This document shows, piece by piece, positions 10,521-19,291 of a stretch of DNA of 40,000 nucleotides (within the stretch, counting starts at the first letter, position 1; every line of letters starts with the position of its first letter). Source of the DNA: Vibrio porteresiae DSM 19223. GTDB lineage: Bacteria > Pseudomonadota > Gammaproteobacteria > Enterobacterales > Vibrionaceae. The notes beneath the pieces are model-generated. The model saw nothing but the letters and a program-made list of their open reading frames with translations, did not search any database and was not told the DNA's origin. Location: the NCBI RefSeq assembly GCF_024347055.1, contig NZ_AP024895.1:3405607-3445606 (forward strand), written 5' to 3'. A program made the translations under genes and the position numbers.

Positions 10521-10575
10521 CGGTCTTAGCCACTTTCGTTTCAGTCTGCTCTGGCTGAAACGTATTTGTTCCAAA
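10521..10575 (+). repeat. Cassette-boundary repeat, copy A (with hairpin)
   Basis: 'cggtcttagccactttcgtttcagtctgctctggctgaaacgtatttgttcc' is about 85-90% identical by eye to copy B over roughly 43 nt. The hairpin is cgtttcag(tc)/(gg)ctgaaacg. Confidence 0.7.
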
Positions 10576-10605
10576 ATGAGCTAGCTAGTTAACTACCTTA
10601 CTGCG

Positions 10606-10669
10606 ATAGGTTAATTTTATTGTATTTTTTTAACCTATAGCTCCAATTAGGTTAATTGAGACAACCTAT
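10606..10669. promoter_or_regulatory. Two inverted-repeat pairs built on TAGGTTAA (candidate protein-binding sites)
   Basis: ATAGGTTAA (10606-10614) pairs with TTAACCTAT (10630-10638) as perfect 9-bp arms with a 15-bp spacer. TAGGTT (10648-10653) pairs with AACCTA (10663-10668). Confidence 0.35.
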
Positions 10670-11129
10670 TTAGAGCCATGGGTAAATGTGCAAGCCATTA
10701 GATACCAAGTCTTTGTCGAGTAGACGACACCTGTTACCAGGTGTCGCCCCTCCAAGAACCCAGCGTGCAACTTTCACCGCACTAGGCTCAAGCCTTCACG
10801 AAGGCACCGATTGGCACCTAGCAACTTATAAAGCAGCCAGAGCAGGCTCATACCAAGAGTTACGGCATTGTTTCTTTGATTTTCTCTTAGCCAAGTTGAC
10901 TTCGCCTAGCGCGAAGCTGCCCCTATTCAATTTAGAGTTAATGCTTATCACAGTCCTGATGATGTAGGTTTGACTAAATTTTTATAATAAACCAATATGC
11001 CCTTGATTGAGTATGTAAGATTGTTTTGGGTTTACTGGTTGCTCAGCAACCGTTCATATTACACATTATGTAATTAAAGCTAATGTACTTAGGCCGATAG
11101 GGGTAATAGGTGGGGGCCTGACAAGCCTC

Positions 11130-11333
11130 ATGATGATTGTTGGCTCTGTAGCCCTTTTGTTGTTTGTGTTGCGTTACGTAAGTATTAGATTGGTTCCATC
11201 GGATCAAGACAGCATCAAGGAGGTGTCTATGGATAAAACATTAAAAGCTCGTACTCGTATTTTTTTAAGCTCGGTTTTTGAAAGTATATGGGCTACAGGA
11301 GTCGGGGTCATTGCAGGACACCTATCCGCCTAA
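11130..11333 (+). CDS. Possible small membrane protein (67 aa)
   Basis: Hydrophobic N-terminus 'MMIVGSVALLLFVLRYV' and C-terminus 'IWATGVGVIAGHL'. A purine-rich GGTGGGGG lies about 15 nt upstream. There is no other support. Confidence 0.25.
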   Translation: MMIVGSVALLLFVLRYVSIRLVPSDQDSIKEVSMDKTLKARTRIFLSSVFESIWATGVGVIAGHLSA

Positions 11334-11567
11334 GTACATTATTTATAACAGTGCGTATCAATTGCCCTCTGACAAACCTAAGTATTGTTGAGAATCGTAC
11401 CTTGTATAGATATGAACGACTCACACATCATAGATTTAGCAATTGATTACATCTTATTGATTTGTAAAAGTGCAACAATTGGAATTGCTCAACAAGCATC
11501 CTCTCAATTCGGTAGTACATTATATGCTGAGCAACCTTATCAAATAACGGCTTAGAGTGACTGGACT

Positions 11568-12344
11568 TTGTCAATTAACGATAAACAACTCAAATTAGCA
11601 CGAGCAGCAGCCTTTTGGGGGCTATTCATTGCAGTATTCTCTGTATCTTCAAACGCTAGCGAACCAAAGCCAGAGATAGATACCTATCAAAATAGTTCAG
11701 TATCTATCGCAGTAAGTGAATTAGCCGAGATCAAAGCAACTTTAAGTAAACAGGAAAAATCAATTAAGCAGCTAATCGATAAGCAGCAAAGCAATGAAGA
11801 AAAATATGCCCCGAAAGTTAGGGTAGAGTCACTAGAAAAGTCTTTGGGAGCAGTCACCTCAGAGAAAGCCCAACCCAAGGAAGAAACTCGATTAGAACTC
11901 CGATTGGAATCTATTGAGTCATCTCTGAATTCGATGTCAGACAAAGACGACTACTTTACTTACGCAGATATGGCAGCTGTTGCTATTACGTGCGTAGCAG
12001 TATTACTAACTATTGTTGGTTTGGTGATTGCAGGTCTTGCTTTCTGGGGGTATAGAGAGATTAAAGAGCTGACAAAAACTAGCGCATCTAAAGAAGCCCA
12101 ATCTGTGGCAAAACAAACAATGGAAGAAATGATTAATGGTGTAGCAAAGAGTGAACTTGAAAAACTGATAAATGACGGAAAGTTGCAAAATACCTTGCAG
12201 GATGCTGTAGATATGATTCTGCGAAATGACCCGAACAACAGCGAGAAGAAGCGTACAGAAGAACTACTTAGTGAGTTAGATTTTGACGAGTCAGAGTTTG
12301 ATGGCACTGAAAGCGATGAAAACTTCGATGGTGACAAAAGATAG
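11568..12344 (+). CDS. Bitopic membrane coiled-coil protein with an acidic C-terminal tail (258 aa, TTG start)
   Basis: Signal-like N-terminus 'AAAFWGLFIAVFSVSSNA|SEP', a heptad-rich middle, a TM segment 'AAVAITCVAVLLTIVGLVIAGLAFWGY', and the tail 'DFDESEFDGTESDENFDGD'. It ends 12 nt before the peptidase gene. There is no in-frame ATG near the start, so the start is uncertain. Confidence 0.5.
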   Translation: MSINDKQLKLARAAAFWGLFIAVFSVSSNASEPKPEIDTYQNSSVSIAVSELAEIKATLSKQEKSIKQLIDKQQSNEEKYAPKVRVESLEKSLGAVTSEKAQPKEETRLELRLESIESSLNSMSDKDDYFTYADMAAVAITCVAVLLTIVGLVIAGLAFWGYREIKELTKTSASKEAQSVAKQTMEEMINGVAKSELEKLINDGKLQNTLQDAVDMILRNDPNNSEKKRTEELLSELDFDESEFDGTESDENFDGDKR

Positions 12345-12356
12345 AAGGTAAAACAC

Positions 12357-17344: not shown

Positions 17345-17607
17345 GTGTTTTGGTTTCCAGTAAATTTGCCGATGAGTTACGTGGTTATAAACTAGATTCG
17401 CAAGTTTCTGAAATTTTCAGTTTATTAGAAAACATGGATTATAATAGTCCTTCGCAAATGCATAACGTAAAGATTATAGACGGTGAAAAACAGTCAATAT
17501 ATGTTTTAAAACATAAAAACTGGAGGGTTTTCTTTACTAAACAAGAAAATGACATTGTATTATTAAGCATCACAGATAGTAAAGTGATAAGACATTTCAA
17601 TGGATAA
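17341..17607 (+). CDS. Small RelE/ParE-fold-like protein (88 aa)
   Basis: 'IYVLKHKNWRVFFTKQENDIVLLSITD' resembles the RelE/ParE core pattern (l)YrlRvGdyRviY.i.d..i.il.i. It is preceded by a helical segment. It is translationally coupled to the upstream membrane protein rather than to a soluble antitoxin. Confidence 0.45.
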   Translation: MSVLVSSKFADELRGYKLDSQVSEIFSLLENMDYNSPSQMHNVKIIDGEKQSIYVLKHKNWRVFFTKQENDIVLLSITDSKVIRHFNG

Positions 17608-17713
17608 ATATAGTATTCTTGGTTTTAAGTTACTTAATTATTGCAATGTTGGTATTTATGCACCATTGAATTATACGTGATAGGGAACATCCTTGAATGG
17701 AGTAGCATTGAAT

Positions 17714-18127
17714 ATGGAAAATAAAAAAGTAAAATGGCTGATTTACACTGTTCTAGTGGGGCTGATTCCTATCCTATCAAGGATATTTGTCTGGAGTGTC
17801 ACTGAGGTTGGGGTAGTCAGTTTAATAATGCCAGCAGACTTTATTGCTTTTGGTTTAATTTTACATATTTCTAATATCAATGAAATTGAACATCTAACAG
17901 ATGATGAAAAATCGTGGAAAACTATTCAAAATGGAACCTCTATAGCCTTCATTGCTTTTTATAGCGTTTTATTTTCATTGATAATGATAAGTGAGAGTAT
18001 TCCAAACTTGATAGACATGGGAGCAATCAAATTTTGCACTATAGGTTTATCTGTGGTCTCTTTTTTAATTAGTTTTTCTGTATTCCATAGAATTTCGAAA
18101 ATTGCAGCTAATGAGGTAACAGTATAA
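17714..18127 (+). CDS. Four-TM membrane protein (about 138 aa)
   Basis: The helices are 'WLIYTVLVGLIPILSRIFVW', 'VVSLIMPADFIAFGLILHI', 'SIAFIAFYSVLFSLIMI' and 'FCTIGLSVVSFLISFSVF'. The ATG at 17714 has GGAG 11 nt upstream; the track starts at a TTG at 17693. Confidence 0.6.
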   Translation: MENKKVKWLIYTVLVGLIPILSRIFVWSVTEVGVVSLIMPADFIAFGLILHISNINEIEHLTDDEKSWKTIQNGTSIAFIAFYSVLFSLIMISESIPNLIDMGAIKFCTIGLSVVSFLISFSVFHRISKIAANEVTV

Positions 18128-18258
18128 TGGTTACTACAATTATAATTGCATTAACTTTGGTTATGGTCTTTGTTGGTATTTCCACTGTTGTCTGGTCAAT
18201 AATTAATACAAGAAATAAATTTTACGAAGAATACAAGGCAAGGAATAAAAATAAATGA
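18127..18258 (+). CDS. 43-aa single-TM peptide
   Basis: The ORF is below the track threshold, so I translated it myself: MVTTIIIALTLVMVFVGISTVVWSIINTRNKFYEEYKARNKNK. Its start overlaps the upstream stop (TAATG). Its stop overlaps the downstream start (ATGA at 18255-18258). This double coupling argues that it is translated. Confidence 0.5.
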   Translation: MVTTIIIALTLVMVFVGISTVVWSIINTRNKFYEEYKARNKNK

Positions 18259-19196
18259 TAAAGAATTTTATATACTTAGACGAAGATAAAATGTATTCAT
18301 TATCATCTCAAATATTTGAAGGGATAACTGAATATGTTTTAAATGAAAGCTCTTCAGATAATCAAGAAAGTGAGACTCAAAAAGGCCCAGTAGGAAGTGG
18401 TAAGGTTTTAGCTGATGTAATTATTTCAAGTAGTAAGGCAACTGAGAAAAAGTTTTTTCATGACTACTCATTTACATTATTTGAAAATCATCTAATGGAG
18501 CAAGGCCGGGTTTTAGATCTAACAAGTGCAACACTTTCTTTAGAAGATCTTAAAGCATCCATTACTGACTTTTCTTTTATAAAAACAAAAGCTAAGTCAA
18601 CATTTAATGATGTGAATAAAATAACTGAGTTATTTTCCGAGTTTAATACGATTGGTGAAGCACTAGCACATATGGGAGCATTTTCCCGAATTAACGAACT
18701 AACTTCCGAGCTTGCATTGTTGAAGAAGCAAACACCAGATAGGAATAAAAGATCCCAACTCGAAGCTGAGTATAAGAAACTAACTAACCTCAAAGAATTA
18801 GCTAAAGCTGGCAGCCTTTATCAAGATCAAAAGTTTTTAGATAACTTAAGTTTATTAACTAAATATGGTTTTTCGGATCAATTTGAAATAACGCAACCTA
18901 TCGGCGAGGCACTTTTTACTTCATGTTTAAAACGTGATTTTCTGAGGGAGAGTGAGGATATATTAGTTAAAAAATATTCTCGAAAAACTGAAAAGAAAGT
19001 TGTTATCTTCGGAATAATATCTCAAGCATTTTCAGGTAATGAAATGGAATTAGATGAAAAAGGTAAAGATTATTCAAACATGAAGGCTGCACTGTTAAAC
19101 CTTGTCGATCATTTAACTAACATTGAACATTCTATTTCCGGAAAGCAAGAAAATGAAGTCGTCATTGATCCCATAGCCGTCTACTTTGAAGTGTAA
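18255..19196 (+). CDS. 313-aa soluble protein of unknown function, last gene of the AT-rich operon
   Basis: It is a long ORF in about 30% GC DNA with no TM segment. The N-terminus is 'MIKNFIYLDEDKMYSLSSQIFEGI' and the middle is coiled-coil-like ('LTSELALLKKQTPDRNKRSQLEAEYKKLTNLKELAK'). I recognise no catalytic motif. Confidence 0.7.
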   Translation: MIKNFIYLDEDKMYSLSSQIFEGITEYVLNESSSDNQESETQKGPVGSGKVLADVIISSSKATEKKFFHDYSFTLFENHLMEQGRVLDLTSATLSLEDLKASITDFSFIKTKAKSTFNDVNKITELFSEFNTIGEALAHMGAFSRINELTSELALLKKQTPDRNKRSQLEAEYKKLTNLKELAKAGSLYQDQKFLDNLSLLTKYGFSDQFEITQPIGEALFTSCLKRDFLRESEDILVKKYSRKTEKKVVIFGIISQAFSGNEMELDEKGKDYSNMKAALLNLVDHLTNIEHSISGKQENEVVIDPIAVYFEV

Positions 19197-19267
19197 TGCC
19201 TATAACAACCGATCAATGTATCAGCATACTTTTCCTAACCTGACAGAAACTCTTTAATGCGATTGTT

Positions 19268-19291
19268 CTAAACGGTTTCTGTCCATTTCCG
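19268..19291 (+). repeat. Cassette-boundary repeat, copy C (core only)
   Basis: 'ctaaacggtttctgtccatttccg' shares the core AAACG(n)GTTTCTGTCCAyTTyCG with copy B. Confidence 0.55.

Follow-up and report, generated by a model that had tools for sequence, protein, structure and literature searches.

The stretch of the Vibrio porteresiae DSM 19223 chromosome analysed here (contig NZ_AP024895.1, positions 3,405,607 to 3,445,606; 40,000 nucleotides (nt), referred to as the window) carries a gamma-mobile-trio (GMT) island inserted into greB. Its cargo consists of three gene modules bordered by copies of a short junction site, and this site is the subject of the present study. Sites of this kind very probably constitute a real, structured family that marks module borders.

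Junction sites and modules of the island

The copies of the junction site and the modules are arranged as follows (aa, amino acids; ORF, open reading frame).

10527..10577, + strand: copy A; degenerate 5' core AGCCA (10528-10532), CTTT, palindrome 10537-10562, TATT, 3' core TGTTCCA (10567-10573)
10574..14875, + strand: module 1; a 140-nt unit, an intron relic, small ORFs, a 258-aa protein, peptidase, Beta and cII-like gene; ends with AAACGCG-TTTC-TGTCCA
12357-12854: M78/CapP-like peptidase of module 1 (PADLOC capP)
12841-13986: Beta of module 1 (Pfam/PADLOC beta)
14011-14808, - strand: cII-like gene of module 1 (PADLOC cll)
14870..14920, + strand: copy B; TGTCCA (14870-14875), CTTT, palindrome 14880-14905, TTTT, TGCCCCA (14910-14916)
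14910..16699, + strand: module 2; RexA (15099-16121) and RexB (16126-16590), assigned by Pfam and PADLOC; ends with AAACGGC-TTT-TGTCCA
16694..16745, + strand: copy D; TGTCCA (16694-16699), TCAA, palindrome 16704-16730 with stem CGTGTAAGCT/AGCTGGCACG, AAAA, TGCCCCA (16735-16741)
16735..19285, + strand: module 3; low-GC operon (16973-19196) and conserved right end (19199-19285), finishing with AAACGG-TTTC-TGTCCA
19268..19299, + strand: copy C; AAACGG-TTTCTGTCCA (core 19280-19285), TTTC, then CGAGTTAAAT, an arm of another stem type

A preliminary description of this DNA had reported four copies of a repeat in the same orientation, and all four are present where it placed them, on the + strand. 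Copies A, B and D have in common the layout T(G/A)TCCA-N4-palindrome-N4-TGCCCCA, which is complete in B and D, has degenerate cores in A and is reduced to the 5' core in C. The hairpin said to be shared by A and B comprises 10-11 bp, and the two copies are 89% identical over 44 nt (local alignment score of 63 versus a maximum of 28 in 200 shuffles). In both, the hairpin is followed by a T-run as in a Rho-independent terminator, and they are the two best terminator-like sites between positions 8000 and 20000, with RNA folding energies of -14 to -19 kcal/mol; the stem of D is followed by AAAA, and C has no hairpin. The extended likeness of B and D amounts to about 66% identity over 74 nt by hand count, and the window contains two exact matches to the composite TGTCCA-N28-40-TGCCCCA, at B (14870-14916) and D (16694-16741), versus 0.02 expected.

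Copy C has AAACG(N)GTTTCTGTCCA in common with B (alignment z about 4). It is made up of the 5' core and the first arm of a CGAGTT-type stem, with neither an intact hairpin nor a 3' core. Its continuation TGTCCA-N4-CGAGTT recurs in L035 and L036 (L numbers denote related loci), and its position is homologous to that of full elements: 19201-19248 of the window is 85% identical to 1056-1103 of L041, just upstream of a complete element. A covariance model of the family, R1, scores B at 74.5, A at 58 and D at 56.7 bits; in a scan of the whole 40 kb it found nothing beyond these three, and copy C went undetected. Thus, given the A/B alignment above shuffles, the terminator ranking of A and B and the excess of the B/D composite, the repeat is real, with the clearest case made by A, B and D and the poorest by C, which shares only the core.

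Comparisons of loci other than this island and its variants (see below) gave the rule that a gene module extends from one TGCCCCA core as far as the following TGTCCA core. Read by this rule, the distal cargo (10527-19285) is an array of core-hairpin-core, module 1, core-hairpin-core, module 2, core-hairpin-core, module 3 and core, located en bloc between a truncated helicase of the backbone and the right end of the island. The borders that the rule yields (10574-14875, 14910-16699 and 16735-19285) reproduce the three modules originally proposed to lie between the copies. The base composition of its own that each module had been credited with is clear only for module 3 (GC 0.30-0.34, versus 0.37-0.41 for modules 1 and 2). 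The right ends of all three modules read (C/T)AAACG(N)G-TTTC-TGTCCA, which is the core picked out in the preliminary description.

A family of structured sites

A strict pattern, CCAYTTYCGTTTCAG-N10-CTGAAACG, matched once, in a Vibrio viridaestus contig, among 185,579 genomes (one per species), and a looser pattern matched seven JGI/TARA metagenome contigs. Neither hairpin pattern occurs in IMG/VR; three matches to a loose core pattern in that database were set aside, as all are hairpin-less and apparently due to chance. Likewise, the 22 kb of chromosomal flank of the island within the window contain no copy. A repetitive extragenic palindrome (REP) or bacterial interspersed mosaic element would be expected in many chromosomal copies outside mobile DNA; with an empty flank and a single match in 185,579 genomes, the motif is not a generic intergenic repeat.

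Hosts of the family are plasmids of Vibrio, Photobacterium and Shewanella (among them plasmids of V. tritonius, V. alginolyticus and Shewanella baltica), the V. viridaestus contig L034 with two copies 6.8 kb apart, and the marine metagenome contigs L035-L041. Copy B is 100% identical to contig L037 over 50 nt. On the V. alginolyticus plasmid, defence systems are parted by such sites.

The geometry of T(G/A)TCCA, 4 nt, a palindrome with a stem of 8-12 bp, 4 nt and TGCCCCA is found in 15 elements from 10 sources whose stems differ, and both cores are nearly invariant across the family. Stem type CGTTTCAGCC/GGCTGAAACG is that of A and B, while CGTGT.AG/CTGGCACG is that of D and of the S. baltica plasmid (L045 10011-10062); further types are TGAGTCAGCGA/TCGCTGACTCA and CGAGTTATA/TATAACTCG. 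In an alignment of 12 members (A2), 93% of the cells are in standard pairs, and compensatory changes are present in seven of ten pairs. None of 500 shuffles reached any of the five measures applied, and sliding the pairing partner by 1-3 columns lowered pairing to 25-38%. Model R1, which was built from A2, also recovers members outside its alignment (L036, L037, L039, L040 and L041).

Could the family consist of miniature inverted-repeat transposable elements (MITEs), with the arms as terminal inverted repeats, the cores as an imperfect target duplication, an unknown transposase, and a border position reflecting mere intergenic tolerance? The arms are perfect inverted repeats, L038 and L039 share a 72-nt unit at 100% identity with different flanks on both sides, several metagenome contigs stop close to a copy, and the gene of an IS200-type transposase adjoins the copy in L039. 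The two cores, however, differ in a fixed, polar way (TGTCCA on the left, TGCCCCA on the right), which a target duplication would not yield. Moreover, copy number per genome is very low, modules of kilobase size follow the same core rule, and the IS200 of L039 interrupts the element instead of flanking it. We therefore consider a MITE origin improbable.

Two irregular copies may be recorded here. In L039, an IS200/IS605-type TnpA element (383-853, 977-1054) lies directly after ...GAAACATTTTTG and has removed the 3' core; the divergence of L038 and L039 after TTTTTG, first taken as a crossover, is due to this insertion. In L041, the palindrome (1146-1186) contains a 15-nt tandem duplication (AGCTCTGGCTGAAAC twice), as if by slippage or aberrant recombination.

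Homology breaks at the cores

Three independent comparisons relate the cores to the limits of homology. A 3.8-kb module encoding an AAA-ATPase and an S8 peptidase is 99.3% identical in L036 and L040 and has unrelated flanks on both sides; identity extends from TGCCCCA-AAAT-GAGTTTAAG to TTTC-TGTCCA. An 8.4-kb module is 99.93% identical in two chromosomal contexts of V. metschnikovii (L056/L057), where it starts with TTTGCCCCA-TTTC-TTCTTAGAG and ends with CTAACTCG-AAAA-TGTCCA. Finally, the backbones of the related conjugative plasmids pAQU1 and pVPS43 share 1694 nt at 100% identity up to ...AAAAATGCCCCA (ATGCCCCA) plus 2 nt, after which unrelated cargo follows; the variable region of pVPS43 closes at a TTTCTGTCCA core beside parA. 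The idea that cargo is gained and lost module by module is largely borne out by these coincidences of core positions and homology breakpoints.

On pAQU-type plasmids the cores bound a hotspot between the gene of an NYN-domain protein and parA/korB, which holds different defence modules in pAQU1 and pVPS43 (core coordinates: L086 5862-5869; L087 13333-13340 / 1597-1606).

These data bear on an alternative, namely that the hairpins are ordinary intrinsic terminators or mRNA-end hairpins that travel with the modules and are conserved only through recent homologous or illegitimate exchange. Such a view is in line with the terminator-like rank of A and B, with the location of A, D and C 58-93 nt downstream of + strand genes, and with the T-rich N4 that follows the stem in most family members. 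Yet conservation is higher in the non-pairing flanks TGTCCA and TGCCCCA than in the stem, and the 4-nt spacing is fixed. In addition, the AAAA behind the stem of D does not fit, B lies upstream of a divergent gene pair and not behind a + strand gene, homology breaks at the cores and neither in the hairpin nor at gene ends, and elements up to 100% identical occur where the contexts otherwise share nothing. Taken together, a role as terminators only is unlikely.

The core rule also agrees with the right end of module 3 (19199-19285), to which unrelated modules in L041 and L044 have homologous right ends; its motif CATACTTTTCCTAA is also present upstream of a TGTCCA core in L044. The motif CATACTTTTCCTAAY is located 40-60 nt upstream of the TGTCCA core in three unrelated module right ends (window 19226-19240; L041 1079-1093; L044 ~17125) and may be an arm-type or accessory binding site.

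A fifth core and a group II intron

Module 1 begins with two features that precede its genes.

10574..10714, + strand: 140-nt non-coding unit, from the core of copy A to a fifth core (AAGTCTTT|, TTT at 10712-10714)
10715..10791, - strand: relic of a group II intron, domains V-VI (Rfam RF00029, 54 bits with a gathering score of 40, E = 1.5e-8)

Positions 10571-10639 of the window are 78% identical to the Pseudoalteromonas shioyasakiensis megaplasmid CP076682, and by eye the similarity goes on to about 10714. The unit of CP076682 (L042 8001-8137) is uninterrupted, with the limits ...CCCCA-AAAT-GAGCT and caagtcTTTGCCCA-TTTC. Because this homologous unit starts at a CCCCA core, as does 10574-10714 of the window, and closes with caagtcTTTGCCCA-TTTC, the window has a fifth core which is split by the intron; the GCCCCA side of this core is lost behind the intron relic. 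The 140-nt unit may represent a small RNA, a promoter unit or a module devoid of cargo.

The relic is oriented opposite to the cargo genes and sits at TTT|GCCCC of the fifth core, with its 3' end abutting AAGTCTTT. It is the sole Rfam match; no RNA family was matched over the junction element. Intact homologous introns with a reverse transcriptase gene are found at the same point in L046, L048 and L051, while L050 represents the site without an intron. Introns occupy many modules that are led by a recombinase gene (see below), where they are antisense to the module genes and inserted at TCT|GCCCC. Introns of this kind target DNA hairpins and attC sites (PMC3001079). As a separate observation, the relic of the window is not accompanied by a reverse transcriptase gene; the sequence 10792-11567 lies beyond it.

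The intron leads to the question of whether the junction sites are classical integron attC sites, the cargo then being a cluster of attC sites lacking an integron integrase (CALIN) that was captured from a Vibrio chromosomal integron and is handled by IntI. Besides the cassette-like logic with copies on the same strand, the intron orientation opposite to the genes, as in IIC-attC introns (PMC3001079), speaks for this possibility. TAAC-type motifs upstream and GTTAGA-type motifs downstream of many copies do so as well, although at variable distance and not at B and D, and GCCCC-N7-10-GTTA is reminiscent of the V. cholerae repeat at its 3' end (primer sequence in PMC6125998). By contrast, DNA folding of ten elements (bottom strand; either strand behaves alike) gave only the central palindrome of 8-12 bp with unpaired flanks, that is, no long imperfect R''/L''-L'/R' stem and no extrahelical bases. 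The conserved flanks are direct and not inverted repeats, and homology breaks at the TGYCCA cores instead of at G|TT of an R' box. Modules are multigenic, reach 8.4 kb and have genes on both strands, and no integron integrase is encoded in the window or at any locus examined. After comparison with the V. cholerae repeat primer and DNA folding, membership in the attC class was thus rejected, and we hold it for quite improbable that attC sites underlie the array. The original statement that the site differs from that of integrons and lacks IntI is in agreement with its departure from canonical attC and with the absence of IntI nearby.

A candidate recombinase and a proposed mechanism

On the S. 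baltica IncC plasmid (L045), the gene of a 197-aa tyrosine recombinase begins 136 nt past an element. The recombinases of L034 (V. viridaestus) and L045 are 67% identical, and a TGCCCC(A/T) core is located 122-152 nt upstream of the recombinase start codon in L045, L050, L056/L057, L085 and L086. At E < 1e-20 the family exceeds 7,900 proteins, most of them from Vibrio, Shewanella, Photobacterium and Pseudoalteromonas, and it is represented in 338 plasmid records. Close relatives are encoded by the first gene of defence modules, which include AbiE plus type I restriction-modification (R-M), XRE-PIN plus type I R-M, RES plus type I R-M, SIR2 plus DUF87, and the V. metschnikovii module. The protein scores 19.6 bits with the integron-integrase model TIGR02249, for which the cutoff is 265.

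We consider it moderately probable that the junction sites are the recombination sites of a module-exchange system that is integron-like but distinct from integrons. In its favour stand the constant geometry with covarying stems, the rarity and host range of the family, the homology breaks at cores, the recombinase genes that follow cores, the intron target and the array on the V. alginolyticus plasmid. In such a system the cores would be the points of crossover in a site-specific recombination reaction, and the sequences flanking each core would be inverted recombinase-binding arms contributed by the module ends, e.g. AAACG..TGTCCA..CGTTT in B. The hairpin between two cores would then correspond to two module-end arms back to back, i.e. 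to an empty or minimal module. The tyrosine recombinase of about 197-200 aa encoded by the first gene of some modules is the candidate enzyme; modules devoid of it, including all three in the window, may have been moved in trans or may now be fixed. The hairpin and T-run of A and B probably serve in addition as a transcription terminator which insulates neighbouring modules.

Several observations weigh against this proposal. No recombination product, circle or empty site was directly seen, and the mechanism rests on breakpoints. The systematic difference between the cores (TGTCCA versus TGCCCCA) is unusual for crossover regions that ought to be identical, terminal inverted repeats of large modules are weak by hand comparison, and both copy C and the 5' core of A are degenerate. 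As for the enzyme, the cargo of the window encodes no small recombinase, the recombinase gene of L034 is 1.6 kb away from the nearest site, that of pVPS43 is inverted relative to the sites, and unrelated plasmids commonly carry members of the broader family (about 50% identity), which may serve other roles. Finally, RexAB homologues elsewhere, in a comM-integrated element and in a V. parahaemolyticus defence island, are not accompanied by sites, which means that the sites are not intrinsic to RexAB. DNA homology of module 2 to a V. crassostreae element, itself without a junction site, is confined to 15011-16604; hence each end of module 2 comprises about 90 nt of module-end sequence, in agreement with the core rule.

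In its logic, the proposed exchange system is closest to the integron; attC membership fails on structure, breakpoint position and absence of IntI. Like integrons, the arrays consist of promoter-poor modules on the same strand, each followed by a structured site whose ends are conserved while the hairpin varies in sequence and length; the enzyme is a tyrosine recombinase (here a candidate), and group II introns oriented opposite to the genes insert at the site. Vibrio integron cassettes also store anti-phage systems. Unlike in integrons, there is no IntI or attI, and the candidate recombinase of about 197 aa is encoded inside modules and not on a fixed platform. Direct-repeat flanks (TGTCCA ... 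TGCCCCA) surround a short perfect palindrome, breakpoints are at the cores and not at G|TT, and modules are multigenic, reach at least 8 kb and form arrays inside other mobile elements.

Two further systems invite comparison. The pdif modules of Acinetobacter plasmids are small modules (toxin-antitoxin, resistance) bounded by short XerC/XerD sites in many plasmid contexts, with no dedicated recombinase in the module. Sites of the pdif type are 28 bp long (XerC-6-XerD), alternate in orientation and depend on the host Xer system, whereas the sites of the window measure about 50 bp, are all direct and have two different cores, and a candidate recombinase borne by the elements exists. Tandem accretion of integrative elements, by successive insertion into a resident att site, likewise produces arrays of modules parted by hybrid att sites with inverted arms around a common core; it differs in that one hybrid site separates neighbours and each element has one integrase, while here two cores flank a palindrome between neighbours and most modules are integrase-less.

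In a limited full-text literature search no description of the site or of modules led by the small recombinase was found, which is weak evidence of novelty. It is tempting to speculate that a second integron-like gene-capture system operates in marine gammaproteobacteria, in which a tyrosine recombinase of about 200 aa moves multigene, mostly anti-phage modules between core-hairpin-core docking sites of about 50 bp, and arrays build up inside GMT islands, pAQU- and IncC-type conjugative plasmids and chromosomal islands; we put this forward tentatively. If true, it would explain how such mobile elements acquire and swap defence cargo. Conjugative plasmids of pathogens of fish and shrimp also carry the sites, and the system could therefore matter for the traffic of defence and resistance cargo between plasmids and chromosomes. 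From the combined signature of core rule, covariance model and candidate recombinase, module borders and excision-junction sequences can be predicted. The signature also provides a handle for new defence systems, i.e. whatever is located between two sites, module 3 being an example. The latter encodes proteins of 123, 88 and 144 aa (the 144-aa ORF is called as 137 aa), a called 43-aa gene and then a 313-aa DUF6414 protein; PADLOC found no match in it, and its place among defence modules makes it a candidate for a new defence system.

The host island and its own recombinases

The island is located between ompR and a GGDEF gene followed by tex, a Vibrio-type chromosomal segment, and its backbone comprises the following features.

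~2210-19470, + strand: GMT island of 17.3 kb, inserted in chromosomal greB
2545-3840, + strand: GmtY, 431-aa tyrosine recombinase (Pfam)
3840-7817, + strand: GmtZ, 1325-aa Integrase_2/INT_rpt protein (Pfam)
7819-8442, + strand: GmtX, 207 aa; homologues at 92-96% identity are named 'gamma-mobile-trio protein GmtX' by public sources
8461-8937, + strand: complete replacement greB carried by the island
after the island greB (region 8997-9838), - strand: helix-turn-helix (HTH) gene
9296-9838, + strand: VspR-like gene
9832..10323, + strand: truncated ResIII helicase, 163 aa (Pfam ResIII), the last backbone-like gene ahead of the module array

Chromosomal greB is split, with residues 48-158 encoded at 2209..1877 and residues 1-47 at 19612..19472. 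GMT islands insert inside a gene and carry a compensating homologue of the disrupted gene, according to the parts of the GMT study consulted (Mahata et al., bioRxiv 10.1101/2023.03.28.534373). With adjacent GmtY, GmtZ and GmtX genes at its 5' border and an intragenic insertion coupled to a carried greB homologue, the island of the window is one of them, and as in other GMT islands its cargo is rich in defence systems. By contrast, the junction sites are not a GMT feature. In the passages searched of that study, neither internal cargo boundaries nor gain of cargo are mentioned (bioRxiv 10.1101/2023.03.28.534373).

The preliminary description had suspected that the island recombinases recognize the site. 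According to this alternative, the sites would be recognized by GmtY, GmtZ and GmtX, which would load and unload cargo. It draws on the location of the array inside a GMT island with two proteins of the tyrosine-recombinase type, and on the arms around each core, which are laid out like the GMT insertion sites that the consulted parts of the GMT study describe, i.e. inverted repeats around a spacer of about 14 bp (bioRxiv 10.1101/2023.03.28.534373). Two other variants of the greB-type GMT island (V. harveyi; metagenomes), with GmtX 92-94% identical and the same trio-greB-HTH-VspR backbone but other cargo, nevertheless contain no copy according to blastn-short and the covariance model, and their right ends have other repeats. 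The greB insertion junctions and the TAGTAY-rich ends of the island are unlike the site in sequence. Conversely, sites are present on plasmids and chromosomal islands for which no GMT genes were seen in the stretches retrieved, so that the motif is not restricted to trio-type islands. The element is thus not part of the GMT machinery, and with its absence from other greB-type islands the basis for the suggested role of the island recombinases is gone. On sequence grounds the sites are unrelated to the insertion site and the ends of the GMT island. We regard recognition by the GMT recombinases as very improbable, the small tyrosine recombinase being the better candidate.

Copy C had been taken for the end of the island, which in fact runs on to about 19470. 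A conserved GMT right end or a scar of a tandem island was also considered for this copy and dismissed, as it lies 185 nt inside the end and related islands run from the last cargo gene into TAGTAY repeats with no site between them. The ends of the island (19376-19421 and 2215-2400) are dense in TAGTAY/RTACTA and include a 46-nt near-perfect palindrome at the right end. The TAGTAY-type motif is also found at the right ends of related greB-type GMT islands (L015 9680-9720; L023 19845-19930), and the motifs are likely, though putative, binding sites for GMT proteins.

The helicase described as truncated just before copy A is indeed shortened, with 163 aa compared with 460 aa for the full homologue at the same place in the V. 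harveyi island L023; DNA similarity to L023, however, stops near 10235, about 290 nt ahead of copy A. In V. harveyi, a ResIII/Helicase_C helicase likewise comes next after VspR. In all greB-type GMT islands seen (window 8997-9838, L013-L030), the island greB is followed by the HTH gene on the - strand and the VspR-like regulator; both genes appear to be backbone rather than cargo.

Searches for exact protein matches to the island greB product, GmtX, RexA and the DUF6414 protein returned the same island only, and the flanking GGDEF protein has no record. The trio genes are enclosed by an inverted repeat of 325 nt (70%), made up of the 3' fragment of chromosomal greB (1877-2201) and the island greB (8610-8934). 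With respect to ompR and tex, split greB has opposite orientations in the window and in the V. harveyi loci, which suggests an inversion or a different local gene order. Within module 1, an inverted repeat of 31 nt (84%; 11074-11104 / 11318-11348) surrounds a 67-aa ORF (11130-11333). In gmtZ, six to seven tandem repeats of 174 nt (3870-5039) encode the INT_rpt units (seven Pfam repeats), and since GmtZ ranges from 1209 to 1325 aa across related islands, the number of repeats varies.

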